A model generated the notes under the pieces. The model did no database searches, was not told the origin of the DNA, and worked only from the letters and a program-made list of their open reading frames with translations. A stretch of DNA of 64,000 nt from an uncultured Actinomycetes bacterium (GTDB taxonomy: Bacteria; Actinomycetota; Thermoleophilia; Gaiellales; JAICJC01): positions 452,793-516,792 of the forward strand of contig CAWEIZ010000002.1 in assembly GCA_963809325.1 (NCBI GenBank), written 5' to 3'. The position numbers were made by a program, and so were the translations under genes. The first letter of the stretch is position 1; each line of letters opens with the position of its first letter. Shown piece by piece: positions 23,609 through 39,340 of the stretch.

Positions 23609-24165
23609 CCGCGGCGGACGAGCTCGGGCAGGATCTCGCGCAGCGCGTCGACCGTCGGCGTGCGGTCGCGGATCCCGGTGTGGTGCGAGGGCCAGCCGTC
23701 GTGGAAGTCGACGATCGCGCCGTCGTGGACGCCGTCGAGCACGCGCCGCACGATCCGGTCGACCTTCCGCTCGCGCCAGTCGATCGGGTCGACGTCCCAC
23801 AGGATGCACGCGAGGCCCAGGCCGGCGCCGACCACGCCCACCCGCTCGGCGTCCTCGCCGTACGGCGGCCGGACGAGCCGCGGGGCGATCCCGGAGGCGT
23901 CGGTGATGACCTGCTGCGCGCGGGCCAGCTCCTCGCGCAGCGCGCTCTCCTCGAGGCGGCCGCAGTGCGGGTGCGAGTACGTGTGGTTTCCGAGCTCGTG
24001 GCCGGCGGCGACCATGCGCCGCAGGAGCGGCTCCTGGCCGGGGATCTTGTCCCCGAGGACGAAGAACGTCCCGGCCCCTCCGTGCTCGGCGATCAGATCG
24101 GCGATCGCCTCGGTGTGCGGGGACGGGCCGTCGTCGAAGGTGAGCGCTAGTCGGGCTCGGGCCAC
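23542..24165 (-). CDS. polysaccharide deacetylase (NodB homology domain)
   Basis: LALTFDDGP, GTFFVLG, GHELGNHTYSH and VRPPYG. GTG 24165 is preferred and ATG 24201 is the alternative. The 3' end overlaps the convergent deacetylase by 67 nt. Confidence 0.8.
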   Translation of the reverse strand: MARARLALTFDDGPSPHTEAIADLIAEHGGAGTFFVLGDKIPGQEPLLRRMVAAGHELGNHTYSHPHCGRLEESALREELARAQQVITDASGIAPRLVRPPYGEDAERVGVVGAGLGLACILWDVDPIDWRERKVDRIVRRVLDGVHDGAIVDFHDGWPSHHTGIRDRTPTVDALREILPELVRRGYEAVTVSAMSAQPATQTPSSS

Positions 24166-24980
24166 CGGTAGCTGAAGTAGAACTGCCGCCACGCCGTCCA
24201 CCAGTCGTCGGCGCGCGAGGCGATGGTGCGGCCGTCGATGATCTCGACCAGCGGGTGGTGGCGGAACTGCTCGGAGTGGTCAGGTGTCGCGAGCTCGACC
24301 CGGACCTCGCACGGCTTGCCCGGGTCGTACGGCGGCACGGCCTTCAGGTCGGCGAGCGCGGCCCGGGCTCCCTCCTCGATCATCCGGCGCGCCTCGGCCG
24401 GCGTCTTGTGCCGGCCGCTGAACCGCCCGAGGGCGGTCTTCACCTGGACGGTGGTGAGCCCGTCGCCGAGCAGCTCGCGCCCCTCGCGGCACGCCGCCTG
24501 GTCGCCGGTTACGAGCAGCACCGGGCACCCCCAGGTGCCGCACAGCGCCGCGTTGATGCCGGTCTCGCCGACCTCGGTGCCGTTGAACCGCACGCTGCGC
24601 CACTCGGTCCCCGAGACGGTGTGCGTCATGAACCCGTCGCTCGTCCCGGCCATGGCGTGCATCCCGATGAAGAGCGCGCCGTCGCACCCATCCTCGAGGA
24701 CGCCGGTGTACTCGGTCCACTCCTTCTGGACCACGAACTCGCACCCCTCGTCGAGGTCCTCGGGGATGAGCGAGTTGAACGACCAGCCCTTCCCGGCCCC
24801 ATGGCAGTCCATGACGACGACCTCGGTCGCGCCGCCCGCCCGCGCACCGCGGACGGCTGCGTTGATCTCCTGGGTGTAGAGCTTGCGCCCCTCCTCGTAG
24901 AGGGACTCACCGCCGGCGACCTGCTGCCAGTTCGAGATGCCGGCGACGCCCTCCATGTCGCTCACGATGAAGACGCGCAT
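24147..24980 (-). CDS. M55 family D-aminopeptidase (DppA-like)
   Basis: The MRVFIVSDMEGVAGI N-terminus is typical of M55. The 277-aa ORF is intact. Confidence 0.85.
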   Translation of the reverse strand: MRVFIVSDMEGVAGISNWQQVAGGESLYEEGRKLYTQEINAAVRGARAGGATEVVVMDCHGAGKGWSFNSLIPEDLDEGCEFVVQKEWTEYTGVLEDGCDGALFIGMHAMAGTSDGFMTHTVSGTEWRSVRFNGTEVGETGINAALCGTWGCPVLLVTGDQAACREGRELLGDGLTTVQVKTALGRFSGRHKTPAEARRMIEEGARAALADLKAVPPYDPGKPCEVRVELATPDHSEQFRHHPLVEIIDGRTIASRADDWWTAWRQFYFSYRWPEPD

Positions 24981-25040
24981 GCGGCGGCCACTCTACCGGC
25001 CGCCCGGCCCGGAAGGTCGCAACGTGCGTGAAAAACCCGG

Positions 25041-25069
25041 TTGCAGACCGTGGACGCGTCCCGTAGCTT
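25041..25069 (+). promoter_or_regulatory. sigma-70-like promoter of riboswitch module 2
   Basis: TTGCAG (25041-46), a 17-nt spacer, then TAGCTT (25064-69). The upstream box GAAGGTCGCAA-N3-GCGTGAAA has the same spacing as copy 1. Confidence 0.6.
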
Positions 25070-25071
25070 GA

Positions 25072-25189
25072 CCACTGCGCCGTCCAGGGCAGCCGAGTAG
25101 GTCGAAGCCGGGCGGAGGAGCGGGTAGAGGTGACTCGAACGCTCTTTCGCCCGGGGGACGAAAGGCCAGCCGGGACGGCGAATCCTTTT
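25072..25189 (+). promoter_or_regulatory. ydaO-like (c-di-AMP class) riboswitch candidate, copy 2
   Basis: Same closing helix and hallmark blocks as 14869..14985. The substitutions cluster in linker and hairpin positions. One is compensatory: A14909:U14962 becomes G25112:C25166. Confidence 0.6.
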
Positions 25190-25211
25190 CTCGAGCGGTA
25201 GGCTTGCGGCG

Positions 25212-25316
25212 ATGGGGCCGAGCGGCATCACACCGTGGGGCGAGTCGCCGAAGGGTCTTCGCGGCTGGCTCCGCTTCCTGCTGCGGCTGATCGCGCCGCG
25301 CCCGCCGCGGCACTGA
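25212..25316 (+). CDS. possible 34-codon sORF downstream of riboswitch candidate 2
   Basis: ATG 25212 to TGA 25316 gives MGPSGITPWGESPKGLRGWLRFLLRLIAPRPPRH. The RBS is weak and there is no similarity to the copy-1 sORF. It could be non-coding. Confidence 0.2.
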   Translation: MGPSGITPWGESPKGLRGWLRFLLRLIAPRPPRH

Positions 25317-25319
25317 TCG

Positions 25320-25741
25320 TCAGCTCAGCTGGACCGAGCCGTCGTCGCGGAGCGTCCAGTGCGGGTTGTGGGCGACCTCCCACGGATGCCCGTCGGGGTC
25401 GGCGAACACACCGGAGTAGCCGCCCCAGAAGGTCTCGGCCCCGCCCCGCAGCACGGTGCCGCCGGCGGCCCGGGCCTCCTCCAGGACGGCGTCGACCTCC
25501 GCGGGCGAGCGGGTGTTGTACGCCAGCGTCACGCCGCCCCAGCCGCCGCCGTCGGCAACGACCGAGTCCTCAGCGAGCTGCGCGCGGCCCCACAGCGCGA
25601 GGATCGTCCCTCCCGCCTGGAAGAACACGACGTCGTCGGCGGGCGCCGCGCCCGTCGTCCACCCGAGCCCCTCGTAGAACGCCCGCGCCCGCGCCCAGAT
25701 CCGAGACGCCCAGGCGTGACGAGGCTGACCCGCTGCTCCAC
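25320..25741 (-). pseudogene. VOC (glyoxalase/bleomycin-resistance) family protein, two frameshifts near the 5' end
   Basis: The body reads ARARAFYEGLGW...FADPDGHPWEVAHNP in one frame. The expected N-terminal strand is split over three frames (MEQRVSLVT / LGVSDL / ARARAFY), with an extra C near 25713-14 and an extra G near 25694-96. Confidence 0.65.
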
Positions 25742-25750
25742 GCTGCCATC

Positions 25751-26851
25751 CTAGCCAGTGCCGAGGATCTCGGACGCGAGCCACTGCCCCTGCTCGTTCA
25801 GGCGGCCGTGCGACACGAGCCCGAACTTGGAGACGCAGTCCAGGTTCCAGCGCGCCCAGCTGATGCCGTGCCGGCGCATGATGCCCTCCACCTGCTCGTT
25901 GTAGACGTGGTTTCGCACGTCGTCGTTTCGCGCGCCCCACTCGCCGACGATCATCGGGATCCCATGCAAGTGCGTGCTCCGCCACGGGATGGCGAGGTTC
26001 AGCCACTGGTTGCGAGCGGTGCCGTGGTAGCGGGTGCTGAGCTGGTTGTGCGTCTCCGACCAGTTCGGAACCCAGTTGTCGTCGGCAGCGTCGAGGCCCG
26101 ATCCGCAACAGCCGTTGTAGAAGTCGTGCCAGTCGAGCGCCGTATGGGCGAGCCGGAATCCGGCGCACCCGAAGCACGCCCGGGCGCCGAGGGCCCCGCC
26201 GCGGACGTTGAAGAAGACGGTCGTATAGGGGTCGATGGCGAGGATCGCATCGCGGATGCCCGCCTGCCATTCCAGCATGTCGCGGTCGACCCGCGGCGAT
26301 CCGACGTGATCCCAGACGAACGGTCGCGGCTCGTTGAAGATGCCGAAGCCGATGACGCGCGGGTTGCCGGCGTACCGGTGCACGAGCGCGCGCACGAAGA
26401 CGAGATACGCGCCGCGGGGCGCCGGCGCGCGGCGCACGTGGAAGCCGTGCCGGTTGACCCACCCCGGAAGCTCCTCGCCGCGCAGGTCGAGCACGACGTT
26501 CACGCGATGTGCGGTCAGGTATGCGATGAAGGCGTCGAGGCGCTCCAGCTCACGCGCATCGAGGTGTCCGCGGCGGGGCTCGATGTCGGCCCAGAGGACG
26601 CGGACCCGGGCGAAGTTCGCATGCAGCTCGATCACCTTCTCCACGAGCCGCGATTGGTAGCTGACGTCGACCCCGCGGAGGATCACGATCCTGCCGGCCC
26701 GGTCGACGAAGTGGATGCCGCTCGTGGTCACCGCCGGCCGCACCGGCCGCGCGGCCCTCGCGGGTGGCGAAAGGAGGAGAGGGACGAACGCCGCGAGCGC
26801 GAGGCTCGCGAAGGACCGGCTCAAACGACAGGTCCGCGACCCGGTCTGCAC
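25751..26851 (-). CDS. glycoside hydrolase family 5 (secreted)
   Basis: N-terminal signal peptide, an IFNEP acid/base motif and a GEWG nucleophile motif. The 366-aa ORF is intact. Confidence 0.85.
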   Translation of the reverse strand: MQTGSRTCRLSRSFASLALAAFVPLLLSPPARAARPVRPAVTTSGIHFVDRAGRIVILRGVDVSYQSRLVEKVIELHANFARVRVLWADIEPRRGHLDARELERLDAFIAYLTAHRVNVVLDLRGEELPGWVNRHGFHVRRAPAPRGAYLVFVRALVHRYAGNPRVIGFGIFNEPRPFVWDHVGSPRVDRDMLEWQAGIRDAILAIDPYTTVFFNVRGGALGARACFGCAGFRLAHTALDWHDFYNGCCGSGLDAADDNWVPNWSETHNQLSTRYHGTARNQWLNLAIPWRSTHLHGIPMIVGEWGARNDDVRNHVYNEQVEGIMRRHGISWARWNLDCVSKFGLVSHGRLNEQGQWLASEILGTG

Positions 26852-26966: not shown

Positions 26967-27557
26967 ATGCCTGAGACCATCCGCATCCCCGCTCGCGAGG
27001 GCCACGCCCTGCGCATGTCCGCCGGCGACCGCATCCGCGTCATCGACCCCGAGGGCGGCCAGGTTGCCGACGTGTTCGCCTTCTGTGCCGACGACCTGTC
27101 GGAGTACCACTCGGCCGAGCACACGCGCGTGTACGTGAGCCGGCTCTTCCCGCGCGTCGGCGAGCAGTTCGTGACGAACCGGCGCCGCCCGATCCTGACG
27201 CTCGAGGCCGACACGTCGCCCGGCATCCACGACATGCTCTGCGCGGCCTGCGACCCGAGCCGCTACGCCGGCCTCGGCGTCGAGGGCTGGCACGCCTCCT
27301 GCCAGGAGAACCTCCAGAAGGCGATGGCCGCGCTCGGCTACGAGGGCATCGAGATCCCCCAGCCGATCAACGTCTTCATGAACATCCCTGTGCGCGACGA
27401 CTGGGAGCTTGGGTGGGAGCCGGCGCCGACGAAGCCCGGCGACTCGGTCACGCTGCGCGCGGAGCGCGACATCGTCTTCGCGGTCTCGGCCTGCCCGCAG
27501 GACCTCGTCAGCATCAACGCCGGCAGCCCCGGCCCGATCGACCTCGAGCTCCAGTAA
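26967..27557 (+). CDS. DUF1989 family protein (urea-carboxylase-associated / carboxyguanidine-deiminase-like)
   Basis: ATG 26967 is in frame within track ORF 26715..27557. Blocks GGQVADVFAF, HSAEHTR, TNRRRPILT, IHDMLCAACD and INVFMN match my memory of DUF1989. Confidence 0.75.
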   Translation: MPETIRIPAREGHALRMSAGDRIRVIDPEGGQVADVFAFCADDLSEYHSAEHTRVYVSRLFPRVGEQFVTNRRRPILTLEADTSPGIHDMLCAACDPSRYAGLGVEGWHASCQENLQKAMAALGYEGIEIPQPINVFMNIPVRDDWELGWEPAPTKPGDSVTLRAERDIVFAVSACPQDLVSINAGSPGPIDLELQ

Positions 27558-27616
27558 CCACCGGGGCCAGGCCCCATCGCCCGCAGGCGATGGGGCCCGA
27601 CCCCACGGGGTTGGTC
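27556..27616. repeat. REP-like palindromic element, copy C
   Basis: AACCACCGGGGCCAGGCCCC-[ATCGCCCGCAGGCGAT]-GGGGCCCGACCCCACGGGGTTGGTC. It fills the whole gap between the convergent stops at 27555-57 and 27615-17 and overlaps both. Confidence 0.85.
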
Positions 27617-28592
27617 AGCGGTGAGCGTCGGCGTAGGCGGCCAGCGTGTCGGCGATCACCTGGCACGCGGCCATGGCGGACTCGCCGTTGTCGTACGCCG
27701 GGGCGACCTCGCAGACGTCCATCGCCACGATGTTCGCGCGGCCGATCACCGAGACCATCGTGAGCGCCTCGCGCGAGGTGAGCCCGCCCATCGTCGGGAC
27801 GCAGGTTCCGGTGCAGACGGAGCTGTCGAGGCTGTCGACGTCGAAGCTGAAGTAGACGCCGTCGGTGCCGTCGGACGCGATCTGGACCGCCTCCTCGGCG
27901 ATCGCCCGTGCACCGCGGCGGTCGACGTCGGAGACGTGGAAGACGGTCACGCCCGCCTCGCGCACGTAGGCGTACTCGCTCTTCGGGTTCATCGCCCCGT
28001 GCGGGCCGATGATGACGCACTTGGCAGGGTCGAACGCCGCGAGCTCCATCGCCCGCGTGATCGGGCAGCAGTGGTTGATCCGCTCGCCGCCGACGTCGGG
28101 CGCCGTGTCGAGGTGCGTGTCGACCAGGATCAGCCCGTACGTCCCCTCCGGCGCGTGCCGGTCGACGGCCATCGAGCCGCCGATCGTCGTGATGTGCTCG
28201 CCCCCGCACAGGACGGGGATCGCGCCCGCCTTGATCGCCTCGCCCATCGCGTCGGCGACGAGGTCGACGGTCTTGGCAGCGTTGGCCGGGACGACGGCGA
28301 CGTCGCCCATGTCGGCGACGCCGAGCGCCTCGAAGATGTCGAGGTCGTACTCGCCGTGGTAGGAGAGCATGTGGCTCGACCAGTCCCGCACCGCCCGGGG
28401 GCCGAGCTGGGCCCCCGGACGGGCGATCGTGGTCGAGTCGAACGGCATGCCAAGGAAGGCTGCCTTGACGCCCGCCGCCCGCAGGGCATCGGCGTCGGCC
28501 TCCACCTGGGGGGCGCCCATGAACGTGGCGATCCCGCCCACGAGCACGGAGTGCCACCCCTGGCGGGTCTGTTGCGAAGCGACGGAGCTCAT
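27615..28592 (-). CDS. arginase/agmatinase (ureohydrolase) family protein, divergent signature
   Basis: The ureohydrolase fold reads GGEHIT, LVDTHLD and SFDVDSLD. The six predicted Mn-ligand positions are retained but flanking residues are atypical. Confidence 0.8.
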   Translation of the reverse strand: MSSVASQQTRQGWHSVLVGGIATFMGAPQVEADADALRAAGVKAAFLGMPFDSTTIARPGAQLGPRAVRDWSSHMLSYHGEYDLDIFEALGVADMGDVAVVPANAAKTVDLVADAMGEAIKAGAIPVLCGGEHITTIGGSMAVDRHAPEGTYGLILVDTHLDTAPDVGGERINHCCPITRAMELAAFDPAKCVIIGPHGAMNPKSEYAYVREAGVTVFHVSDVDRRGARAIAEEAVQIASDGTDGVYFSFDVDSLDSSVCTGTCVPTMGGLTSREALTMVSVIGRANIVAMDVCEVAPAYDNGESAMAACQVIADTLAAYADAHR

Positions 28593-28605
28593 CGAGTCCC
28601 CTTCC

Positions 28606-30222
28606 TCATTCCGGCGGGATCTCGGCGAACACCTTGTCCACCGCGACTCCGCGCTGCTTGCTTGTGAACCAGGCGATGCCGTAGACGACCGCGGCCGACG
28701 GGATGATCAGCGCCATGACCCACCGGAGCGTCGTGCCCCAGAGGTCGAAGCCCTGAACCGGGTCGTACCAGAACCAGTACTCGCAGAACACGAGACAGAT
28801 GGTCGAGACGGCGCCCAGGATCGTGATGTTGGGGATCCCGAGCGTCGACCCGTTCCACGGCGAGGCCTGCCACAGGTCGCGTCGCCGGTACGGGAACACG
28901 GTCGCCGCGATCGAGCACAGGACGAACGACAGGATCCAGGCGAAGATCCCGTTCAGCGTGTTGAAGATCTGATCGACGTAGAGGTAGAGGCAGATCTCCG
29001 AGAGCACCCACACGAACGCGATCGCGTAGATCGGCGTGTGGTAGCGCTCGTTCACCTCGGACAGCTTGCGCGGGAAGAGCCCGTCGAACGCCCACGCCAG
29101 GATCGCTCGCGTCGCGGCGAGGAAGTTGATCGGGAGCCACACGTACGTCCAGAACAGGAAGCTCACCCCGAGGATCAGGACGAGCCAGCCCTGGTTCCGC
29201 ACCATCGTGGCGATGACCTCGTTGTACGTCGGCAGGTTGCCGATCCCGAGCACGCTCGGGACGTCCTGCGGCAGTGGGTACCCGAGCCGGCCCAGGAACG
29301 TCGTCCCGACGGCGTGGTTCAGCCCGAGCACGAGGAGGAGCATGAAGATCGTCACGTAGACGATCGAGCCGGGCATGCCGATGAACTGCGACCGCTTCGC
29401 GTTTCGCACCTCGCCGCCGATGAAGCTCGACGTGATGGCGTAGAGCGTGATGAAGAGCGGCCACACCATCGCGTAGAGGGTCTGCTTCAGGTCGAAGCTG
29501 CTCTGTGCCAGGTTTTGCGAGTACTTGTCGAGGCTTGCGGTCGCATTGTCGACGCCGCCCACCCCGGAGATGTAGGAGTTGAAGCCACTGGCGGTGTCGG
29601 TCTGGTTGTGGATCGCGAGGATGATGAGGCCGACGACGACGCCGGTCATCGCGATCACGAACGTCACGGTCTGGATGCGGAAGTAGAGTCGCGTCCCGAG
29701 CGCGAAGACGATGGCGAAGAACGTGAGCAGGAGCGATCCCGCCACGAAGATCCACCACTTACGGCCGAAGTTGTCCCCATATCCGACGAGCGTCGGGCTG
29801 TCGAACACGTAGCCGAGCTCGCGGCACAGGCCCGAAAGACCGTACTGGGCCAGGTAGGCGGCGGGGATGCCCGTGTAGGTGACGAGCCAGACGACCCAGT
29901 TCCACGACGAGAGGAAGCCCAGGAATGGGTGCAGCGTGCGGCTGATGTAGATGTAGTCCCCGCCCGACCGCGGCATCGCCGCGGCGAAGTAGGCATACAC
30001 ACCGGCCATCGGCAGCGCGAGCAGGCCGGCGAGGATCGTCGCCGTCACCATGCTCCCGCCGACGTACAGCGCAGGGATCAGGAGCACCATGAACGTCACG
30101 CCGATGCCGATGTTCTGGTTGTTCGTGTTGTAGATGAAGACGTCGCGGGCGGATGCCTCACGCCGCAGCCCGGTCGCCTTCCTGGCGAAGACCTGCGGGG
30201 CCGGACTCGCTTCGGTGGCCAT
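28606..30222 (-). CDS. APC superfamily amino acid/polyamine permease
   Basis: 538-aa polytopic ORF with APC-type motifs (MPRSGGDYIYISR). Confidence 0.9.
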   Translation of the reverse strand: MATEASPAPQVFARKATGLRREASARDVFIYNTNNQNIGIGVTFMVLLIPALYVGGSMVTATILAGLLALPMAGVYAYFAAAMPRSGGDYIYISRTLHPFLGFLSSWNWVVWLVTYTGIPAAYLAQYGLSGLCRELGYVFDSPTLVGYGDNFGRKWWIFVAGSLLLTFFAIVFALGTRLYFRIQTVTFVIAMTGVVVGLIILAIHNQTDTASGFNSYISGVGGVDNATASLDKYSQNLAQSSFDLKQTLYAMVWPLFITLYAITSSFIGGEVRNAKRSQFIGMPGSIVYVTIFMLLLVLGLNHAVGTTFLGRLGYPLPQDVPSVLGIGNLPTYNEVIATMVRNQGWLVLILGVSFLFWTYVWLPINFLAATRAILAWAFDGLFPRKLSEVNERYHTPIYAIAFVWVLSEICLYLYVDQIFNTLNGIFAWILSFVLCSIAATVFPYRRRDLWQASPWNGSTLGIPNITILGAVSTICLVFCEYWFWYDPVQGFDLWGTTLRWVMALIIPSAAVVYGIAWFTSKQRGVAVDKVFAEIPPE

Positions 30223-30235
30223 ACGCGCTCCCTCC

Positions 30236-31174
30236 TTATCCTGTGACGAGCTGGCAGGACCGCACTCGGTCCTTGCGCAGGTCGATGACGGCCCCGTCGA
30301 TCACGCCCTCGGAGTAGGCGCTGCCGGGGTTGACGCACGTCGTCTTGCCGATCTTGGCGACTGCCTTGGACTCATGGATGTGCCCGTGCAGGGACAGCAC
30401 GGGCTGCACCTCCTCGATCAGGGTGCGCACCGCCGTCGAGCCGACCGAGACGATGCGCGGCTCGCCGCCGTCGAGCACCACCTTGAGCTCGTCGGTCAGC
30501 TGGGGCGCGCGGTCGAGCGTCGTGCCGTGCGGCGGGCAGTGCAGGTTGAAGATGGTCGTGACCCCGGGCTCGAGCTGGGCGGCCAGGCCGTGGAGCCGCT
30601 CGAGCAGCTGCTCCTCCGGCTCCTCGCGCGGGCTGTCCCAGGGGGTCGGGTTCGTCCACGAGCACGAGAGCATCTGGGCGTCGTCTCCGACCTTCACCAC
30701 CTTGTTGTCGGGATTGACGACGGTGGTCGACTCGAGCGCCTCGTCGATCGCGAACTCGTCGTCGTTCCCCGGCATGACGAAGCAGCGGATGCCGGTACCC
30801 GCCAGCCGCTCCTCGGCAAGCGCGATCCAGCGCCGCACCTCGTCGGTCATGAGCCGCGTGAACGTCTCCTCGCGGTAGGCCGTGTCGGCGGTCAGGCGGT
30901 CGTACTCGGCCCGGTCGCACCGGTACGGGTAGAAGCCGTTGAACCGGATGCGCTTCTCCATGTCCTCGACCTCGTCGGCCGGGACGATCTCGTGCCGGCC
31001 GAGGACGCGGGCCTCGTGGCGCCCGTCGGCCATCTCGATCACGGGCACCATCATCTTGCCGGTGATGTCCCCTCCCATGATCAGCGTGTCGGCCTCGTAG
31101 AACTTGGCCGCGTTCAGGAACTTGCGCCAGCACTTCTCGGAGCCGTGCACGTCGCCGGCGTAGTAGAGCTTCAT
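30236..31174 (-). CDS. metallophosphoesterase (calcineurin-like)
   Basis: Starts MKLYYAGDVHGSEK and carries GGDITG, PGNDDE and LHGHIHE. ATG 31174 forms an ATGA overlap with the agmatinase stop. Confidence 0.8.
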   Translation of the reverse strand: MKLYYAGDVHGSEKCWRKFLNAAKFYEADTLIMGGDITGKMMVPVIEMADGRHEARVLGRHEIVPADEVEDMEKRIRFNGFYPYRCDRAEYDRLTADTAYREETFTRLMTDEVRRWIALAEERLAGTGIRCFVMPGNDDEFAIDEALESTTVVNPDNKVVKVGDDAQMLSCSWTNPTPWDSPREEPEEQLLERLHGLAAQLEPGVTTIFNLHCPPHGTTLDRAPQLTDELKVVLDGGEPRIVSVGSTAVRTLIEEVQPVLSLHGHIHESKAVAKIGKTTCVNPGSAYSEGVIDGAVIDLRKDRVRSCQLVTG

Positions 31175-32133
31175 GCCTGCGCCTCCCGGGCGCGGGCGAG
31201 GGCGTGGAGCGAGATCATCTCCCAGGCGATGTTCGCCGCCAGGAGCGCCGTCGGCTGGCCGGGCGAGTCGTACGACGGCGAGACCTCGACCACGTCGCAC
31301 CCCACCAGGTTCACGCCGGTCAGCGCGCGTACGAACGCCGCCGCCTGTGCGGACGTCGGCCCGCCGATCTCCGGCGTGCCGGTGCCCGGCGCATAGGCCG
31401 GGTCGCAGAAGTCGACGTCGAACGTGAGGAACGCGGGCCGTCCGCCGGCCCGTTCGCGCACCAGGTCGCCGTAGCCGGCGGGGCCGAGCTCGAGCAGCTC
31501 GATGGTCGAGAGGACGGTGAAGCCCATGTCGCGCGCGTCGCCGATGTCCGACGGCGCATACAGCGACCCGCGCATACCGGCCTGCACCGAGGCCGACGGG
31601 TCGATCACGCCCTCCTCGGCCGCCCGCCGGAACGTGGTGCCGTGGTAGAAGCGCTGGCCGAAGTACTCGTGCCAGGTGTCGCCGTGGGCGTCGAGGTGGA
31701 CGAGCGCCAGCGGGCCGTGCCGGGCGGCGTGGGCGCGGAGCTCGGCGAGGGTGATCGCGTGGTCGCCCCCGAGGACGATCGGGAACACGCCGGCGTCGAT
31801 GAGCGCGCCGAGCCCCTCCTCGGCCAGCTTGTAGGTGCCGACCGTGTCGCCCGGAGCGAGCTGGAGGTCGCCCGCGTCCACCCCCGACAGGTGGGCGAAG
31901 ATGTCGACGTCCTGCTCGGCGTTGTAGGGGCGAAGGAGGGCCGAGGCCGACCGGATCGCCTCCGGGCCGAAGCGGGCGCCTGCCCGGAAGCTCGTGGCCG
32001 TGTCGAACGGCAGGCCGACGACCGCGAAGTCGACGCCCTCCATGTCGGTGACGTGCGGGAGGCGCATGAATGTCCGGATCCCCGAGAAGCGCGGGCTCCG
32101 GAACGCGTCGGCCGGCTGGTAGCGGCCGCTCAC
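31171..32133 (-). CDS. agmatinase / guanidino-acid hydrolase (canonical ureohydrolase)
   Basis: Canonical GGDHAIT, HLDAHGD and TFDVDFCDPAYAPGTGTPEIGG motifs. GTG 32133 forms a GTGA overlap with the upstream SDR. Confidence 0.9.
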   Translation of the reverse strand: MSGRYQPADAFRSPRFSGIRTFMRLPHVTDMEGVDFAVVGLPFDTATSFRAGARFGPEAIRSASALLRPYNAEQDVDIFAHLSGVDAGDLQLAPGDTVGTYKLAEEGLGALIDAGVFPIVLGGDHAITLAELRAHAARHGPLALVHLDAHGDTWHEYFGQRFYHGTTFRRAAEEGVIDPSASVQAGMRGSLYAPSDIGDARDMGFTVLSTIELLELGPAGYGDLVRERAGGRPAFLTFDVDFCDPAYAPGTGTPEIGGPTSAQAAAFVRALTGVNLVGCDVVEVSPSYDSPGQPTALLAANIAWEMISLHALARAREAQA

Positions 32134-32840
32134 CGCGCGCCCCCGTTCACCGACACGATCTGGCCCGTGATCGTCCCGGCCGCGTCGCTGCACAGGTGGG
32201 CGATCACCTCGGCGACCTCCGCCGGGCGGCCGACCCGTCCCATCGGCACCGCCCGTGCGTAGCGCTCGTGCATCTCGGCCATCGACAGCCCCGCGTCGTC
32301 GGCGTCGACCTGCAGCTGGGGCGTGTCGATGATGCCGGGCGCCACGGCGTTCACGGTCACGCCGTGCGGGCCGAGCTCGAGCGCCGCCGCCCTGGTGAGC
32401 GAGATGATGCCGGCCTTCGAGGCGGAGTACGCGGTCGCGCGCGGCCAGCCGGTGCGACCCCATTCGGACGTCACATTCACGATCCGCCCCCAGCCGGCCT
32501 CGGTCATCGCCGGAGCGCATGCCCTCATGCACGCGAAGGTGCCGGTGAGGTTGGTGTTGACGACGCGCCAGAACTCGCCGGCGCCGATCTCGTCGATGCC
32601 GCCCATCACCATGTACGCCGCGTTCGCGACCAGCACGCTGACCGGCCCCAGGTCGCGCGTCACGTTCTGCACCATGCGGTCGACGGCCGCCGAGTCGGAG
32701 ACGTCGGCCTCGGCGGAGTAGCCGGAGACGGCCTGGCCCGGCAGGTGGTTTCGGGCCACCGCGAAGCCGCGCGCCTCGAGGACGTCGGCCGTCGCCCGGC
32801 CGATGCCGGTGGCCGCTCCGGTCACGAGCGCCACCCTCAC
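32130..32840 (-). CDS. SDR family oxidoreductase
   Basis: TGAATGIG Rossmann motif, NAA, and YSASKAG catalytic YxxxK. GTG 32840 forms a GTGA overlap with the upstream SDR. Confidence 0.85.
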   Translation of the reverse strand: MRVALVTGAATGIGRATADVLEARGFAVARNHLPGQAVSGYSAEADVSDSAAVDRMVQNVTRDLGPVSVLVANAAYMVMGGIDEIGAGEFWRVVNTNLTGTFACMRACAPAMTEAGWGRIVNVTSEWGRTGWPRATAYSASKAGIISLTRAAALELGPHGVTVNAVAPGIIDTPQLQVDADDAGLSMAEMHERYARAVPMGRVGRPAEVAEVIAHLCSDAAGTITGQIVSVNGGAR

Positions 32841-33496
32841 ACCACCGCCCCGGAGTTGGGCGAGATGACCTCGCCGGTCAGGTACGACGCGGCGTCCGAT
32901 GCGACGAAGGCGATGGTCGCCGCGATCTCCGCGGCCGTCGAGAGCCGCCGTACCGGCAGCGACTCGACGTACGCCGGCGTGCGCCACATGTCGGTCAGGA
33001 GGGCCGTGTCGGTCGCGCCGGGGGCGACCGAGTTGACGCGCACCCCATGCGGGGCGAGCTCGAGCGCGAGCGCCTTCGTGAGGCCCACGATCGCGCCCTT
33101 GGCGGCGCAGTAGTGGGCGTGCAGCTCGGCGCCGCAGAGGGCGAGCTCGGAGCTGACGTTCACGATCGAGCCCCGGCCCCGAGCGGCCATCCGCGGAGCG
33201 GTGGCGCGGCAGGTGTGCCATGTCCCGCCGAGGTGCACGCGCAGCATCCGGTCCCACTCCTCGTCGGAGATCCGCTCGATCGGCGTCTCGGCGACATGGC
33301 CCGCGCAGTTCACGAGGACGTCGATCGGGCCGCGATCGGCCTCCGTCCTGGCCACGAGCTCGGTGATCGCCGCCTCGTCGGTGACGTCGAGCGGCAGGTC
33401 GGTGCAGACGACGTCGTGGCCCGCCGTCTCGAGCGCGTCGGCCGTCGCTCCGCCGATCCCGCCGGCCGCTCCGGTCACGAGGGCGATGCTAGCCAT
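32837..33496 (-). CDS. SDR family oxidoreductase
   Basis: TGAAGGIG, NCAG and YCAAKGA. A GAGGAGGAC RBS precedes ATG 33496. Confidence 0.85.
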   Translation of the reverse strand: MASIALVTGAAGGIGGATADALETAGHDVVCTDLPLDVTDEAAITELVARTEADRGPIDVLVNCAGHVAETPIERISDEEWDRMLRVHLGGTWHTCRATAPRMAARGRGSIVNVSSELALCGAELHAHYCAAKGAIVGLTKALALELAPHGVRVNSVAPGATDTALLTDMWRTPAYVESLPVRRLSTAAEIAATIAFVASDAASYLTGEVISPNSGAVV

Positions 33497-34361
33497 AGAC
33501 GTCCTCCTCGATCCGGACGACGGGCACGGGCCGCGCCTCCTGCGCGGGGATCGCCGTCCGGGTGTGGGCGGCGATCTCACCGGCCGGCGCGATCCACACG
33601 CCTCCCAGCGCGCGCGCGCGCTCGACGACCCGCTCGAGCGTCACGACCCGCGACGGGCGCCCCGACAGGAACGGGTGGCTCGTGTGCACCATGAGGCCGC
33701 CCTCGTCGGCGAGCGCCTCGAGCTCTCCGCCCCACAGGTCGAGCACCTTCGCCGGCGACTCGATGACGGCACCGATGTGCGGCTCCGGCAGGAACGCGTA
33801 CTGCTCCCAGTCGTCGAGCATCCAGTGGACGGGGAGCTCGGCGAGGATGCCGCGGCCCGTGTCGAGCAGGTACGGGCGGTCGTCGTCCATCATGCTCGAG
33901 TCCCACGCGACGCCGAAGTCGGCGAGGATCCCGGGCGTCGAGTTCGTGAGCTCCCACCACGGCGCCCGGAACCCCTCGGGCCGCAGGCCGGTGACCCGCT
34001 CGAGGCTCGCGAACGCGCGCTCGATGTCGCGCTTCTGCTCGTCGTCGGTCATCCGGTGGTACGGGACGTGGGAGTAGCCGTGGTGGCCGAGCTCGTGGCC
34101 GGCGGCGACGATCGACTCGACCATCGCGGGATGGAGGTCGGCGGTGAGGCCGGGGACGAAGAACGTCGCCCGCACGCCGGTCCGCTCGAGCATCCGCATG
34201 ATGCGCGGCACGCCGACCTTCGGCCCGTACGCCTGGTGGCTCATCGTCGAGAGCCGGCCGGCGTACCTCGGGTCGACGGCCAGGACGGCCGACTCCGCGT
34301 CGACGTCGAACGTCAGCGAGAGCGCGGCACGGTGGCCGTCGGGCCAGGCGAAGGGCGCCAT
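33489..34361 (-). CDS. polysaccharide deacetylase family protein (PuuE-like); first gene of the operon
   Basis: LSLTFDVDAES, ATFFVPG and GHELGHHGYSH. Paralog of 22820..23608. It is divergent from the PucR regulator. Confidence 0.8.
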   Translation of the reverse strand: MAPFAWPDGHRAALSLTFDVDAESAVLAVDPRYAGRLSTMSHQAYGPKVGVPRIMRMLERTGVRATFFVPGLTADLHPAMVESIVAAGHELGHHGYSHVPYHRMTDDEQKRDIERAFASLERVTGLRPEGFRAPWWELTNSTPGILADFGVAWDSSMMDDDRPYLLDTGRGILAELPVHWMLDDWEQYAFLPEPHIGAVIESPAKVLDLWGGELEALADEGGLMVHTSHPFLSGRPSRVVTLERVVERARALGGVWIAPAGEIAAHTRTAIPAQEARPVPVVRIEEDVYG

Positions 34362-34446
34362 TCCGCGCTGAGTGTGGCCGATCGCCTCCGACCCGACAAG
34401 GGTGCGACCCTATAACGCTGTACGATCGGCGTTGGAGGTTCATCCA

Positions 34447-35940
34447 ATGCCGATGACGGTGCGAGAGCTTCTGGACGACCCGGCGCTCGAGCTGCGCGTC
34501 GTGGTGGACGGCGCGCTCGACCGCCCGGTCCGGTGGGTGCACACGACCGAGCTCGCCGACCCGACGCGCTATCTCCAGGGCGGCGAGCTGATCCTGACGA
34601 CGGGGGTCTGGCGCGACGCCGGCGTGACGAGCGCGCAGTTCGTCGCGCCGCTCAGGTTGATGAACGTCGCGGCCCTCGGATACGGCATCCCGACGGCGGA
34701 CGGCGACGTCCCGGCCGATCTCGTGCGGGCCTGCCGCCGCGCCGGGCTCCCGCTCATCGCGGTGCCGTTCGAGCTGCCGTTCATCGCCGTCACGCGCGCG
34801 TTCGTCGACCGCGAGTACGGCGGCCGCGAGGACGCGCTTCGGGCCCGCGTGCGCCGAAACGACGAGCTCGTGCGCGCGGCGGGCTACGGATCCGGCCTCG
34901 AGAGCATCCTCGACGTGCTCGACCAGCGGCTCTCGGCCTGGGTCGCCGGCCCGGGCTCGCAGGTGGCGGCGGCCGGCCCGGGGCCGTCAGACGAGGACGC
35001 GGCGGCTGTGCGGGCGGCGGTCGCCGGCCTCCAGGCCGAGTACCCCATCGCCGCCGGCGGCTGGCTCGCGTTCCCGATCGTCACCGTGGGGCGGACCGAG
35101 GCCCACCTCGTGGTCTCGGCCGGGAGGCGGGGACTGGCCGAGGACGACCGCGCGGCGGTCGACCAGGCGCTGCCGTTCCTCGGGCTCGAGCTCGCCCGCC
35201 GCCGGGCGATCCGCGAGAGCGAGCGGCGCCTCGCATCGGAGCTGGTCGACCTGATCATGGCCGGGCCGGGGCAGCAGCAGGCGGCCGCCGCCCGGCTCGA
35301 GACCTTCTCGCTCGACGCGGGCCGGCCGCTGGCCGCCATCGTGTGCGAGGCCGAGGATCCGGACGCGGGGCTCGATCCGGTGGAGGTGGGGCTCGCAGAC
35401 GCGGGCGTGGCCGCGGTGGCCGCCGTCAAGGCGCCCGAGATCGTCGCGGTCGTGCAGTGGGCCGGCGGCGAGCCCGAGCTCGCCGGCCTGGCGGCGGCGC
35501 TCCACGAGCGGCTCGGCGGCGCCGTCGGGGTGGGCGGCCTCGCGGGCGACGCCACCGGACTTCGCACGTCGATCGTCGAGGCCCGCCACGCGTGCCGGTT
35601 CGCCCGCCTCCGGCGCGACGCGGGCTGGGCCACCCACCACCAGGTCGGCTCGCACTCGCTGCTGCTCGCGCTCCAGGACGAGGATGTGCTCGCGGCGTTC
35701 CGGCAGGCGCTGCTCCAGCCGCTCGAGGAGCACGACGCCCGGCGCCAGTCCCAGCTCGTCGACACGCTCGACCGGTTCCTGTCGTCGGGCTGCCGCTGGC
35801 AGCGGACGGCCGCCGAGCTGCACGTCCACGTGAACACGCTCCGCCACCGCCTGGCCCGCGTCGAGCAGCTGACCGGGCGCGACCTGGGATCGATGGAGGA
35901 TCAGGTGGATCTGTGGATCGCTCTGCGCTCGCGGGGCTGA
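34447..35940 (+). CDS. PucR family transcriptional regulator
   Basis: PucR-like N-terminus (MPMTVRELLDDPALELRVV...RWVHTTEL) and a C-terminal HTH (AELHVHVNTLRHRLARVEQLTGRDL). Confidence 0.85.
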   Translation: MPMTVRELLDDPALELRVVVDGALDRPVRWVHTTELADPTRYLQGGELILTTGVWRDAGVTSAQFVAPLRLMNVAALGYGIPTADGDVPADLVRACRRAGLPLIAVPFELPFIAVTRAFVDREYGGREDALRARVRRNDELVRAAGYGSGLESILDVLDQRLSAWVAGPGSQVAAAGPGPSDEDAAAVRAAVAGLQAEYPIAAGGWLAFPIVTVGRTEAHLVVSAGRRGLAEDDRAAVDQALPFLGLELARRRAIRESERRLASELVDLIMAGPGQQQAAAARLETFSLDAGRPLAAIVCEAEDPDAGLDPVEVGLADAGVAAVAAVKAPEIVAVVQWAGGEPELAGLAAALHERLGGAVGVGGLAGDATGLRTSIVEARHACRFARLRRDAGWATHHQVGSHSLLLALQDEDVLAAFRQALLQPLEEHDARRQSQLVDTLDRFLSSGCRWQRTAAELHVHVNTLRHRLARVEQLTGRDLGSMEDQVDLWIALRSRG

Positions 35941-36000: not shown

Positions 36001-37422
36001 ATGAGACGGATCCTTCTGCCGGCGGTCGCCGTGGCGGCTGCTGCGCTGGCCGGGACGAGCGCACAGGCAACGGCGGCGGTCGCGCCCAGCTGGGCGCTCC
36101 TGCCGATCGGGCCGTTCCCCGGTTGCAGCCTCGTGCTCGACAACTGCGACAACGACATCTGGAGCTCCGACGTGAACACGAAGGGATGGGTGGCCGGCGG
36201 AGGCTTCCCCGACCTGCACCGCGCCTGGATCTGGAAGGGCGGCTCGCTGATCCAGCTCGGCGAGGGCAGCGGTGCCTTCAGCTTCGGCGCCGACGTGGCG
36301 GCGATGAACGACGCCGGTGACGTGACAGGGCACGTCGAGGACGTCGGCGGGATCCAGCACGCCTATCTGCACGTGAACGGCAGCGCGACGTTCACCGACA
36401 TCGGGACGCTGGGAGGCGCGCAGTCGAACGGCGAGGGGATCGATGCGAACGACGTCATCGTCGGCAGCTCGGACACGGCCGGCGGTCAGAGCCACGCCTT
36501 CCGGTGGGCCGGCGGAACGATGACCGACCTCGGCACGTTCGGCGGCCCGAACAGCCACGCGACCGCGATCGCACCCGGCGGCCTGATCGCCGGGTCGGCG
36601 CAGACCGCTGCCGGTCACTGGCATGCGTTCCTGATCAGAGCCGGCCATATGCAGGATCTCGGCTCGCTGGGAGCGCTCGACAGCTTCGCGCTCTCGGTGA
36701 ACGCCGCCGGCACGGTCGTTGGCTTCACCGAGACACGCACAGGCGTGAAGGACGGGTTCGTGCTCCGAGACGGGCATCGCACCGACATCACCGCCCGCCT
36801 GAAGGCCGCCGGCCTGCCGGCCGCGTCGAGCGTGGCCGCGGACATCACCGACGCCGGCGACGTGGTCGGCTCGGCGACCCGCGCGGACGGCACGCGGTTC
36901 GGCTACGTCATCACCGGGGGCACGGTGTTCAGCCTCGATCGGCGGACGGTCACCTGCTGCGCCCAGGTCCGTCCGGGCGCCCTGAACAGCGCCCTCCAGA
37001 TCGCCTCCGACGGCGACATCGACCAGTTCACCGCGAAGGTGTGGGAACCGGTGCAGATCTTCGACGACGGGAGCTCCGCGCTCGTCTACACGGGTCACTG
37101 GACGAGGCAGGCCTCGAGCGGTGCGTGGCTCGGGCACGTCTCGACCTCGACGCGGGCGGGCGACTCCGTCAGCCTGTCGTTCACCGGCAGGCGCGTCTGG
37201 TGGATCGCGCCGATGGGCGTCGGCGGCGGCATCGCACGGGTCTTCGTGGACGGCTCGCTTGCGGCCACGGTCGACCTCTCGCAGACGCCGACCGGCATCC
37301 TCCGCCGGCAGACCGCGTTCCTGCGGTCGTGGCCGGGAGTGGGGCACCACACGATCAAGGTCGTCGTGGGCACGCGCGCCCCCAGGGTCGACGTCGACGC
37401 GTTTGCGGTGTCGATGCGGTAG
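36001..37422 (+). CDS. secreted HAF-repeat protein with C-terminal beta-sandwich-like domain
   Basis: Signal peptide plus repeated G..HAF.W..G.M.DLGT(L/F)GG units. Confidence 0.8.
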   Translation: MRRILLPAVAVAAAALAGTSAQATAAVAPSWALLPIGPFPGCSLVLDNCDNDIWSSDVNTKGWVAGGGFPDLHRAWIWKGGSLIQLGEGSGAFSFGADVAAMNDAGDVTGHVEDVGGIQHAYLHVNGSATFTDIGTLGGAQSNGEGIDANDVIVGSSDTAGGQSHAFRWAGGTMTDLGTFGGPNSHATAIAPGGLIAGSAQTAAGHWHAFLIRAGHMQDLGSLGALDSFALSVNAAGTVVGFTETRTGVKDGFVLRDGHRTDITARLKAAGLPAASSVAADITDAGDVVGSATRADGTRFGYVITGGTVFSLDRRTVTCCAQVRPGALNSALQIASDGDIDQFTAKVWEPVQIFDDGSSALVYTGHWTRQASSGAWLGHVSTSTRAGDSVSLSFTGRRVWWIAPMGVGGGIARVFVDGSLAATVDLSQTPTGILRRQTAFLRSWPGVGHHTIKVVVGTRAPRVDVDAFAVSMR

Positions 37423-37440: not shown

Positions 37441-38199
37441 CTACCCGTCGACCTCCTCGGGCTCCTCGTACCAGCGGACCTTGTCGCCGACCCGGTTTCG
37501 CATCTTCCACTTGGTCGACTTGGGCTCCGATTCGATCCGCGCCCACAGCCGCTCGAGGCGCTCGCTCACGAGTGCCCGCTGCTCGTCCGTGAGGCTCGAG
37601 TCGACCAGCGCGTTGCGGGTGCGCTCGACGTTCAGGAGACTCGTGCGCCAGAGGCCCCAGTCGCCGGCGCAGAGCCGGGCGACCCGCGCGCCGTTCACGA
37701 CGTCGCCGCCGCCGTCGCCCTCGGCGATGTCGTGGTGGTAGAGGATCGTCAGGATGTCGGCCTGGTCCTTGGCGTTCAGCTCGACGATCTGCATCTTGGT
37801 GAGGAGGAGCTCGGCGAGCGGGACGGCCGACGGATGGAGCTCGATCCGCTCGGTGATCGGAATCGAGTGGCACATCTCGAACGCCCCGACGAAGACGTCC
37901 ACCTGGCGGCCGTGCGGGGGGTCGTAGTAGAGCAGCCGGCGATGGCCGTTCGTGGCGTTGAACGGCCGGTCGGCCTCGTAGCCCATCGCCGTCATGAACT
38001 CGGAGACGCGCTTTCCGCGGCCCTTCAGCGTGACGAGGTCGATGTCCTTGTACGTCCGCGCGATGACCGGCTCTCCGCCGACGTGCATCCGCACCGCGAG
38101 GCCGCCGACAAGGCGGACCGGAACGTCCGAAGTGGCGGCCGCTTCGAGCAGGCGGTTCGCTTCCAGGACGATGTCGTCGAGAGGGGCGTGATCGGACAT
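37441..38199 (-). CDS. nucleotidyltransferase-fold hypothetical protein
   Basis: The hG[GS]-x(n)-DhD pattern (VGGLAVRMH...YKDIDLV) is present. ATG 38199 is in frame within track ORF 37441..38358. Confidence 0.55.
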   Translation of the reverse strand: MSDHAPLDDIVLEANRLLEAAATSDVPVRLVGGLAVRMHVGGEPVIARTYKDIDLVTLKGRGKRVSEFMTAMGYEADRPFNATNGHRRLLYYDPPHGRQVDVFVGAFEMCHSIPITERIELHPSAVPLAELLLTKMQIVELNAKDQADILTILYHHDIAEGDGGGDVVNGARVARLCAGDWGLWRTSLLNVERTRNALVDSSLTDEQRALVSERLERLWARIESEPKSTKWKMRNRVGDKVRWYEEPEEVDG

Positions 38200-38233
38200 C
38201 CGTGGGTGGGCGTAGAGGGTACACTCGCCCGCC

Positions 38234-39340
38234 ATGAAGATGCGCGCTGCAGTGCTGGAGGCGTTCGGGGAGCCGCTCGCCGTCCAGGAGATCGACATCG
38301 CCGAGCCGCACGCCGGCGAGGTGCTGGTGCGGCTCGAGGCGTGCGGCGTCTGCCACACCGATCTCTACACCGCCTCGGGGGCCGACCCGTCGGGGTACGC
38401 CCCGACCGTGCTCGGGCACGAGGGCGCCGGCGTCGTCGAGCGGGTCGGCGACGGGGTCACGCTCGTGGGCCCGGGCGACCACGTCGTCACCCTGTTCTCG
38501 CCGCAGTGCGGCGAGTGCATCCACTGCAAGAGCCCGCGCACGAACCTGTGCCTCGCGATCCGCGACAAGCAGGGGCAGGGCTACCTGCCCGACGGCACCG
38601 CCCGGCTCTCACGCGGCGGCGAGCCGATCCGCCACTTCATGGGCTGCTCGACGTTTGCGGAGTACACGGTGATGCCCGAGATCGCGCTCGCCAAGGTCAA
38701 CCCGGAGGCGCCGCTCGACCGGGCCTGCCTCTTCGCCTGCGGCCTCTCGACGGGCCTGGGTGCGGCGCTCAACACGGCGAAGGTCGAGCCGGGCTCGACC
38801 TGCGTCGTCTTCGGCGCGGGAATGGTCGGGCTGGGCGCGGTGGCCGGCTGCCGCCTGGCCGGCGCCGAGCGCATCGTGTGCGTCGACCTCTCGGAGGATC
38901 GCCTGGAGCTGGCCCGCGGCCAGGGGGCGACCGACACGATGGTGGGCGGGGAGGACGCGGTCGCGCAGATCGTCGAGATGACCGGCGGGTTCGGGGCCGA
39001 CTACACGTTCGAGGCGACCGGCAACGTGAAGGTGATGCGCCAGGCGGTCGAGGCCGCCCGGATGGGCTGGGGGCTCTGCACGGTCGCGGGCGTGGCCGGC
39101 AAGGGCGAGACGCTCGACGTGGTCCCGCGCCTCCTGATCACCGGCCGCCGCATCGCCGGCTCGTCGTTCGGCGGCGTCAAGGGGCGCGAGGGCGTGCCGG
39201 CGTTCGTCGACCGCTGGCTGGCGGGCGAGATCGACGTCGACCCGTTTCTCTCCCACCACATCACGCTGGACGAGGTGAACCGCGGGTTCGAGCTGATGGA
39301 GGCCCAGGACGGCATCCGCAGCGTTATCAGCTTCAGCTAG
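38234..39340 (+). CDS. zinc-dependent class III alcohol dehydrogenase (thiol-dependent formaldehyde dehydrogenase-like)
   Basis: CGVCHTD, GHEGAGVVE, CGECIHCKS and the GAGMVGLGA Rossmann motif. The 368-aa ORF is intact. Confidence 0.9.
   Translation: MKMRAAVLEAFGEPLAVQEIDIAEPHAGEVLVRLEACGVCHTDLYTASGADPSGYAPTVLGHEGAGVVERVGDGVTLVGPGDHVVTLFSPQCGECIHCKSPRTNLCLAIRDKQGQGYLPDGTARLSRGGEPIRHFMGCSTFAEYTVMPEIALAKVNPEAPLDRACLFACGLSTGLGAALNTAKVEPGSTCVVFGAGMVGLGAVAGCRLAGAERIVCVDLSEDRLELARGQGATDTMVGGEDAVAQIVEMTGGFGADYTFEATGNVKVMRQAVEAARMGWGLCTVAGVAGKGETLDVVPRLLITGRRIAGSSFGGVKGREGVPAFVDRWLAGEIDVDPFLSHHITLDEVNRGFELMEAQDGIRSVISFS

Follow-up and report, generated by a model that had tools for sequence, protein, structure and literature searches.

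Bacterial guanidine metabolism has come into view within a few years, with guanidine riboswitches in 2017, a carboxylase pathway in 2020, a nickel (Ni) guanidinase in 2021-22, and both comammox growth on guanidine and a metformin hydrolase in 2024. The founding Ni guanidinase is GdmH of Synechocystis, and the carboxylase pathway consists of guanidine carboxylase, CgdAB (two DUF1989 proteins) and allophanate hydrolase. Comammox Nitrospira have a guanidine module consisting of a guanidine-I riboswitch and genes for an APC permease and a Ni guanidinase, both of which are induced by guanidine (Palatinszky et al. 2024, PMC11410670). The metformin hydrolase MefH (MfmAB) and DmgH are heteromers whose two ureohydrolase genes stand in tandem, accompanied by hypA/hypB and a Ni transporter (PMC11399263, PMC11271267, PMC10927577). 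Here we analyse a 64-kb stretch of contig CAWEIZ010000002.1 (64,000 nucleotides, hereafter the window) from an uncultured Actinomycetes bacterium of the Gaiellales, in which a metallophosphoesterase (MPE) gene and an APC-superfamily permease gene are embedded between two genes for guanidine-type ureohydrolases, in an operon conserved within its clade. With a nucleotidyltransferase-like protein, the MPE and the permease make up a triad whose orthologues in other bacteria are encoded behind guanidine-I riboswitches. The cluster is probably a nitrogen-scavenging island for guanidine or guanidino compounds, an idea that an earlier note on this DNA had put forward and that is now backed by the placement of the two ureohydrolases, by the riboswitch-linked triad orthologues and by conservation in the clade. 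Guanidine utilisation loci as such are already known; apparently undescribed are the pairing of MPE and nucleotidyltransferase, the subtype of one of the ureohydrolases, and their combination with a guanidinobutyrase-like enzyme, a CE4 enzyme and two short-chain dehydrogenases/reductases (SDRs) under a putative PucR-type regulator.

Operon content and conservation

The whole window has a G+C content of about 72%, at which raw lists of open reading frames (ORFs) are uninformative; genes were called from a third-codon-position GC frame plot and start-codon inspection, which gave a single coding frame throughout 26.9-35.9 kb, and were assigned to families with Pfam. The operon lies on the minus strand and is transcribed in the order A-B-C-D-E-F-G. 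Its first gene encodes a cytoplasmic amidohydrolase of the CE4/NodB fold (A, 33489-34361, 290 amino acids; Polysacc_deac_1, 74 bits) and is followed by genes for a short and a classical SDR, both matching adh_short_C2 (B, 32837-33496, 219 amino acids, 171 bits; C, 32130-32840 with an alternative start at 32825, 236 amino acids, 178 bits), and for the first ureohydrolase (D, 31171-32133, 320 amino acids; Arginase family, 286 bits). Then come the genes for the COG2129-like MPE, which has weak Pfam Metallophos matches (E, 30236-31174, 312 amino acids), the permease (F, 28606-30222, 538 amino acids; AA_permease_2) and the second ureohydrolase (G, 27615-28592, 325 amino acids; Arginase family, 232 bits). 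On the plus strand, the PucR-family gene R (34447-35940) diverges from A, and the DUF1989 gene H (26967-27557) converges on the operon end. The earlier note had described this layout of seven minus-strand genes with divergent PucR and convergent DUF1989 genes, and the frame plot and Pfam bear it out; start and stop inspection likewise confirmed the junctions that it had listed, an 8-nt overlap at A/B followed by GTGA at B/C, GTGA at C/D and ATGA at D/E, while E/F and F/G are separated by 13-nt gaps. The island nevertheless reaches beyond 26967-35940, the limits that the note had given it, to N (37441-38235, minus strand, 252-264 amino acids; weak PF14907 match), the gene for the nucleotidyltransferase-like protein. 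E and F are adjacent and N lies 7 kb away on the strand of the operon, an arrangement that is kept in the clade.

At least nine related genomes, all Gaiellales-like, keep the order of the cluster. When species-representative genomes were scanned with E as the seed, 560 matches were confirmed, and 80 loci were fetched; the full order, with R divergent from A-(extra permease)-B-C-D-E-F-G, recurs in loci L005-L012 at 72-96% protein identity, and the same gene order is found in L025 at 58-84%. The cluster is therefore kept as a unit, and the lack of such conservation, which the earlier note had named as telling against its idea, was not encountered. Close relatives carry the labels Gaiellales or 'uncultured Actinomycetes' metagenome-assembled genomes (MAGs), and a G protein identical to that of the window is encoded on soil-metagenome contigs of up to 861 kb. 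Most relatives (L005, L007-L012) have an extra APC permease gene between A and B, at about 6080-7680, whose product is 38% identical to F and was placed by a neighbour-joining (NJ) tree in a sister group containing riboswitch-regulated permeases; the window, L006 and L025 are without it, and A and B overlap cleanly there (33489-33496 in the window). On the 861-kb contig (L001), C, E and F were called as fragments at about 6000-10000, either because the long reads were misassembled or because the triad is decaying in this population.

Orthologues of the E-F-N triad in the guanidine-I regulon

Orthologues of the E/F/N triad belong to the guanidine-I regulon in several phyla. Riboswitches were sought with the Rfam RF00442 aptamer (gathering score 63), the first Rfam scan covering 20 short loci, and after L057 had been found, relatives of its MPE were searched and seven contexts (L098-L104) were read. 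Guanidine-I riboswitches scoring 76-86 bits lie directly upstream of triad genes in six loci (L057, L098, L099, L101, L102 and L103), three of them from Bacillota and one from Acidiphilium; outside L057 the scores are 79-86 bits. On the Bacillota contig L057 a riboswitch is followed by MPE and permease genes, and a second riboswitch by a gene for an F-like permease. Kyrpidia spormannii (L098) has a riboswitch followed by genes for a GdmH-type guanidinase, MPE, APC permease, N-like protein, P-II and Amt; Sulfoacidibacillus thermotolerans (L099) shows the same order as far as the N-like gene, and Thermogemmatispora carboxidivorans (L100) has the guanidinase, MPE, APC and N-like genes of L099, but no riboswitch was found in L100. 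In Acidiphilium sp. MT5 (L101) the riboswitch precedes genes for MPE, APC permease, N-like protein, type III glutamine synthetase (GSIII), a hydrolase, two DUF1989 proteins and biotin carboxylase. L102 has a riboswitch and the same genes as far as the hydrolase, followed by a GdmH-type guanidinase gene, L103 has a riboswitch and the MPE, APC, N-like and GSIII genes, and L104 combines a urease operon with MPE, APC, N-like, GSIII and guanidinase genes. The MPE gene is the first or second behind the riboswitch, and an N-like gene is present in all riboswitch-headed operons whose contig extends past the permease. The ureohydrolases beside the triad in L098, L099, L100, L102 and L104 carry a Thr/His/Trp (T/H/W) signature. 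Relative to the window proteins, the MPEs of these riboswitch-type loci are 49-52% identical, the permeases of L098-L104, five of which lie behind guanidine-I riboswitches, 39-43% over their full length, and the N-like proteins 30-42%.

The reach of this linkage has limits. Of 88 loci, L057 alone matched a riboswitch sequence pattern, and at E<=0.01 it matched no further Rfam family. Seven loci from Chloroflexota or Caldisericum were free of riboswitches by Rfam, and a metagenome scan seeded on the L057 MPE returned only nine distant relatives, none of them riboswitch-bearing. The two riboswitches of L057 (1103-1224 and 4086-4207) share 97% identity, an indication that the element was duplicated recently. 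Of the three GSIII proteins scanned among those encoded after the triad, two (L101 and L103) exceed the TIGR03105 cut-off and that of L104 is below it, and the urease operon of L104 is complete and lies directly upstream of the triad on the same strand. We found no publication tying the MPE, the nucleotidyltransferase-like gene, the ureohydrolase subtype described below or the gene combination of the operon to guanidine, in a literature coverage that was incomplete, so that an earlier description is possible.

The association of the three genes extends well beyond the riboswitch-headed operons, and the E family itself is large, with more than 7,000 proteins at E<=0.001. When all ORFs around E in the 80 loci were clustered and partners counted over 79 of them, an APC permease neighboured the E homologue in 64 and an N-like protein of about 250 amino acids in 51, usually immediately adjacent and on the same strand, and the triad was found in Actinomycetota, Chloroflexota, Bathyarchaeia, Nitrososphaerota, Asgard archaea and Caldisericum. 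E looks like an active metallophosphoesterase, with its dinuclear-metal motif set intact (invariant ligand residues D8, H10, D36, N137, H212, H265 and H267). Its AlphaFold2 (AF2) model has a pLDDT of 86.8, a profile search against PDB sequences gave marginal matches only, and the nearest structures are the uncharacterised 2YVT (aq_1956) and 1UF3 (TT1561). N is 30-47% identical to the proteins beside E homologues in the 51 loci and has an invariant GG...DxD...D nucleotidyltransferase motif; its AF2 model (pLDDT 89.5) shows a weak resemblance to the minimal nucleotidyltransferases MenT1, LnuA and ANT(2''). N looks like an active minimal nucleotidyltransferase, and both E and N look like obligate partners of the permease.

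Among enzymes, only SDRs neighbour the triad more often than ureohydrolases do, and the latter occur beside it in independent lineages (L018, L019, L022, L049, L059, L068, L070, L098-L100, L102 and L104). The accessory genes otherwise vary: a CE4 gene with a D-like ureohydrolase gene in L013, L018 and L019, the CE4 genes being A-like and adjoining the triad; a Cyclase gene in Thermomicrobium and in L022; and a G-like ureohydrolase gene with a CN_hydrolase gene in L059, L068 and L070. The earlier note had allowed for a phosphorylated substrate; the phosphoesterase alone does not indicate one, E being part of a permease-associated triad that recurs beside unrelated accessory enzymes. Tight triad operons also occur with DeoR-BtpA-glycerol kinase-SDR in Solirubrobacteraceae/Solirubrobacterales (L036, L039, L042, L043, L048 and L073), and with GntR, a PfkB/SIS fusion and SLOG in Streptosporangiaceae and unclassified Actinomycetes MAGs (L056, L076, L077, L080, L083 and L084).

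Ureohydrolases, a candidate pathway and competing explanations

By sequence, G is placed in the guanidinase/metformin-hydrolase clade, outside the guanidinase family proper. Its best matches among PDB sequences are the metformin hydrolase alpha subunit MfmA (8snf, 181 bits), Synechocystis GdmH (7esr, 169 bits) and the N. inopinata guanidinase (9fek, 158 bits), with other ureohydrolases at 138 bits or less, and it scores below both agmatinase cut-offs of NCBIfam. All six His/Asp metal ligands are retained, in GGEH, DTHLD and DVDSLD motifs that align with those of GdmH and MfmA. Guanidinases are recognised by T/H/W at positions 15/134/223 of the PF00491 hidden Markov model (Palatinszky et al. 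2024, PMC11410670); in G, as in each of its orthologues, these positions read Ile/His/Val (I/H/V), and an NHCCP motif is conserved as well. This putative 'I/H/V, NHCCP' subtype is rare, with 157 representatives at E<=1e-30 among 1.84 billion, and a few full-length relatives, at 44-48% identity, carry the same signature when the retrieved sequences are read by eye. Because Ile and Val occupy the pocket where guanidinases have Thr and Trp, G is predicted to act on a substrate slightly larger or more hydrophobic than guanidine, e.g. methyl- or dimethylguanidine. This placement sharpens the guanidino reading of the earlier note, which had called G a divergent ureohydrolase.

In the pathway that we propose, the distal part of the operon (E-F-G, with N and H nearby) would begin with import of guanidinium or a small N-substituted guanidine by F, and G, as a dinuclear-metal ureohydrolase, would split the imported compound into urea and ammonia or an amine. 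In the proximal part (A-B-C-D), D would free urea from an omega-guanidino acid of the guanidinobutyrate or guanidinopropionate type, and the amidohydrolase A and the SDRs B and C might pre-process a precursor. R would activate the operon from the conserved divergent control region. E and N would run a cycle of nucleotidylylation and de-nucleotidylylation on the permease or another shared target, and so control the uptake of a toxic cation; alternatively, they may act catalytically on a nucleotidylated intermediate. The nucleotidylylation cycle is favoured by the fact that E and N accompany the permease whether it occurs with a Ni guanidinase, with the Ni-independent carboxylase pathway or with no hydrolase. 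More broadly, and only tentatively, the MPE and the minimal nucleotidyltransferase may be unrecognised, widespread components of guanidine assimilation within the guanidine-I regulon, either as a permease-gating nucleotidylylation switch or as a third, nucleotide-dependent activation route beside Ni guanidinase and carboxylase, with the I/H/V enzymes of the G type as a new class of alkylguanidine-specific hydrolases. The idea that E and N insert Ni into G was dropped, since both are found beside the Ni-independent carboxylase pathway and also where there is no ureohydrolase. Lombricine or other phosphagen phosphodiesters as substrates of E, streptidine/aminocyclitol catabolism, and Amadori-compound catabolism, which a FrlB/FrlD-like context in Streptosporangiaceae had brought to mind, were each dropped for want of evidence.

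The affinities of D bear on two quite different explanations. The earlier note had called D a canonical agmatinase-type ureohydrolase, and if this were so the locus could be an ordinary agmatine/arginine-polyamine operon in which D releases putrescine and urea, G is agmatinase-like and F carries polyamines or arginine. D does just reach the NCBIfam agmatinase subfamily cut-off (303.8 bits versus 302, a margin of 1.8) and exceeds that of TIGR01230, F is a generic APC permease, and PucR regulators are commonly tied to polyamine and gamma-aminobutyrate (GABA) catabolism. However, the best solved relatives of D are guanidinobutyrase (3nio, 274 bits), proclavaminate amidinohydrolase (1gq6, 267 bits) and guanidinopropionase (3nip, 260 bits), compared with no more than 223 bits to solved true agmatinases, G scores below both agmatinase cut-offs and is closest to the guanidine and metformin hydrolases, the operon holds no putrescine-catabolic genes, and the triad orthologues sit under riboswitches for free guanidine, all of which makes an agmatine operon improbable. 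D remains a ureohydrolase, with canonical Mn-ligand motifs (GGDH, DAHGD and DVDFCDP); its residues at the guanidinase signature positions, S/H/T, show that it is not a guanidinase, and its best matches place it with the guanidinobutyrase/guanidinopropionase/proclavaminate-amidinohydrolase type rather than with the agmatinases. Since proclavaminate amidinohydrolase is its second-best solved relative, and SDRs and deacetylases are common tailoring enzymes, D might also unmask an amine in a natural product as part of a biosynthetic cluster. We give this explanation hardly any weight: there are no non-ribosomal peptide synthetase, polyketide synthase or other core synthase genes in or beside the operon, which instead contains a permease gene, joined in many relatives by a second one, and the riboswitch-type contexts with P-II, Amt, GSIII and urease point to nitrogen assimilation.

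The identity of A matters for the suggestion that the locus serves catabolism of purine-derived ureides or guanidinohydantoins (e.g. 5-guanidinohydantoin from oxidised guanine), with A opening the ring, the ureohydrolases releasing urea or guanidine, the SDRs oxidising a glycolate-like intermediate and a PucR protein exerting control of the purine type. R is of the PucR family, A is distantly similar to PuuE (3cl6, 75 bits), and oxidised guanine has been hypothesised to yield guanidine (PMC12623156). Yet A, which the earlier note had taken for PuuE-like, scores 83.6 bits against the PuuE model TIGR03212, whose cut-off is 424.6, and its closest structure is an uncharacterised CE4 protein of M. 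smegmatis (3RXZ, 298 bits). All five NodB catalytic motifs are retained in 3RXZ (PMC10967932), and PuuE, by contrast, has been described as non-metal-dependent. TFDVD and HHGYSH were read by eye in the translation of A, which is most plausibly a metal-motif CE4 enzyme and not PuuE. Scans of the window found no other purine-catabolic genes, and purine breakdown is a very unlikely function for the cluster. A stronger competitor, though still an unlikely one, holds that there is no single pathway: E/F/N would be a generic amine-uptake module with lineage-specific cargo, a non-guanidine one here, and the ureohydrolases mere neighbours engaged in nitrogen salvage. The variety of the accessory genes (Cyclase; CN_hydrolase; glycerol kinase with BtpA and SDR; PfkB-SIS with SLOG) speaks for it, as does an MPE that is about 50% identical to E whatever its gene context. 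The ATGA overlap of D and E and the 13-nt E/F and F/G gaps, on the other hand, argue for translational linkage of D, E, F and G, the D-E-F-G order is kept down to 58-84% identity, and ureohydrolases recur beside the triad in independent lineages. In addition, the NJ tree puts F in the same superclade as the riboswitch-controlled permeases and the permeases of sugar-type contexts and of archaea elsewhere. These features favour a guanidine island over a generic uptake module.

That the operon answers to a PucR protein, as the earlier note supposed, stands insofar as the divergent gene is there: R (497 amino acids) contains PucR, GGDEF_2 and HTH_30 domains, all above Pfam cut-offs, and is divergent from A in all clade members. 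Its control of the operon is suggested by this synteny and by the A/R intergenic region (34362-34446), of which a stretch of about 70 nt hardly varies among seven genomes with 72-96% protein identity, a conservation far above that of the flanking coding sequence. The region contains the palindromes AGGGTCGCACCCT and CGATCG, which is compatible with control by R without amounting to proof.

H (196 amino acids) is a stand-alone DUF1989 protein (PF09347, 164 bits). The earlier note's link from DUF1989 to carboxyguanidine metabolism does not carry over, since H scores 98.9 and 64.7 bits against UAAP1 and UAAP2, the NCBIfam models covering CgdA/CgdB-type proteins (cut-offs 284.7 and 206), and no carboxylase gene was found among the window genes scanned. 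Judged by these scores, H is not a CgdA/CgdB equivalent; it is 28-32% identical to the Acidiphilium DUF1989 pair, and its nearest solved structure is the uncharacterised 3ORU (190 bits). The 57-nt spacer between the H and G stops holds a GC-rich inverted repeat (27563-27604, not assigned to a strand) with a 19-bp stem and a 4-nt loop. It looks like a bidirectional terminator; a consensus scan found no T-tract terminator. The note had called it a REP (repetitive extragenic palindromic) element, but the sequence occurs once in the 64-kb window and its repetitiveness is not shown. In L025 the H orthologue lies on the same strand as G and overlaps its stop by 4 nt.

The flanks of the operon hold several further genes. 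Between R and N lies a 473-amino-acid ORF on the plus strand (36001-37422) with a strong coding signal and no Pfam match; it is missing from relatives, in which the R and N genes abut, so that it looks like a lineage-specific insertion. Downstream of H, 22550-26851 encodes a GH5 cellulase-family protein, an M55 D-aminopeptidase and two more CE4 deacetylases, one of them 41% identical to A, and this neighbourhood recurs in part among relatives. Two proteins of about 1000 amino acids (18872-21973, plus strand, and 52626-55664, minus strand) combine adenylate/guanylate cyclase and AAA_16 domains; TPR repeats are present in one of them, and in the other there is a kinase-like match that is weak and stays below the cut-off.

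Several points weigh against a guanidine role for the cluster. The proposal rests on computational analysis. The window has no guanidine riboswitch and no Rfam match at the gathering threshold, and the remaining 79 loci nearest to E likewise yielded none. Scanning of window genes revealed none for urease, urea carboxylase, allophanate hydrolase or a Ni chaperone/transporter, so that the fate of the urea is unseen, and G misses two of the three published guanidinase signature residues. Comparisons gave no specific functional assignment for A, B or C: neither SDR reached an NCBIfam equivalog cut-off, and the PDB matches of C are generic FabG-like enzymes. Finally, the sugar-type triad contexts (DeoR-BtpA and GntR-PfkB/SIS-SLOG) are not obviously connected with guanidine and are unexplained by such a role.

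Should guanidine uptake or turnover depend on E and N, a conserved part of guanidine metabolism has been overlooked in hundreds of genomes, including those of Archaea. The I/H/V subtype, with its guanidinobutyrase-like partner, would widen the range of guanidine compounds usable as nitrogen sources by soil actinobacteria, which is relevant to what becomes of fertiliser additives and drugs based on guanidine. Cultured bacteria carrying the triad include K. spormannii, S. thermotolerans, T. carboxidivorans and Acidiphilium sp. MT5.

Comparison with described systems

The solved proteins closest to the products of the window differ in what they can teach about them. The nearest structures to E (2YVT and 1UF3) and the best relatives of A (3RXZ) and H (3ORU) are all without known function and hence offer no mechanistic help. 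GbuA and GpuA of P. aeruginosa (3NIO and 3NIP) are close homologues of D with canonical motifs in common, but their operon context is entirely different.

With the carboxylase pathway the window shares a DUF1989 protein encoded beside guanidine-type genes. It differs in having a single DUF1989 gene, whose product is below the UAAP cut-offs, and no carboxylase or allophanate hydrolase gene was found among the genes scanned. In Acidiphilium (L101), carboxylase pathway genes and E/F/N orthologues are united in one riboswitch-controlled operon.

The alpha subunit of MefH is the best solved relative of G; by eye the alignment looks less than 40% identical. Both have Ile at the first of the signature positions and, in place of Trp, a small residue. 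G keeps the signature His where MefH-alpha has Asn, and has the conserved NHCCP motif. Unlike the tandem genes of MefH and DmgH, G is a single gene between F and the operon end, with D, a distant GbuA-like paralogue, lying beyond E and F, and no hyp genes were found.

The comammox module offers the nearest likeness in layout, an APC permease gene followed by a ureohydrolase gene of the same clade, as in F and G with their 13-nt gap. No Ni chaperone gene was found among the window genes scanned, as none had been reported near the comammox module, and for both the predicted output is urea and ammonia for nitrogen supply. The two differ in regulation, a PucR-type regulator taking the place of the riboswitch in the window, and in the ureohydrolase signature, I/H/V in G versus T/H/W. 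To the comammox arrangement the window adds an MPE, a nucleotidyltransferase-like gene, a guanidinobutyrase-like second ureohydrolase, a CE4 enzyme and two SDRs.

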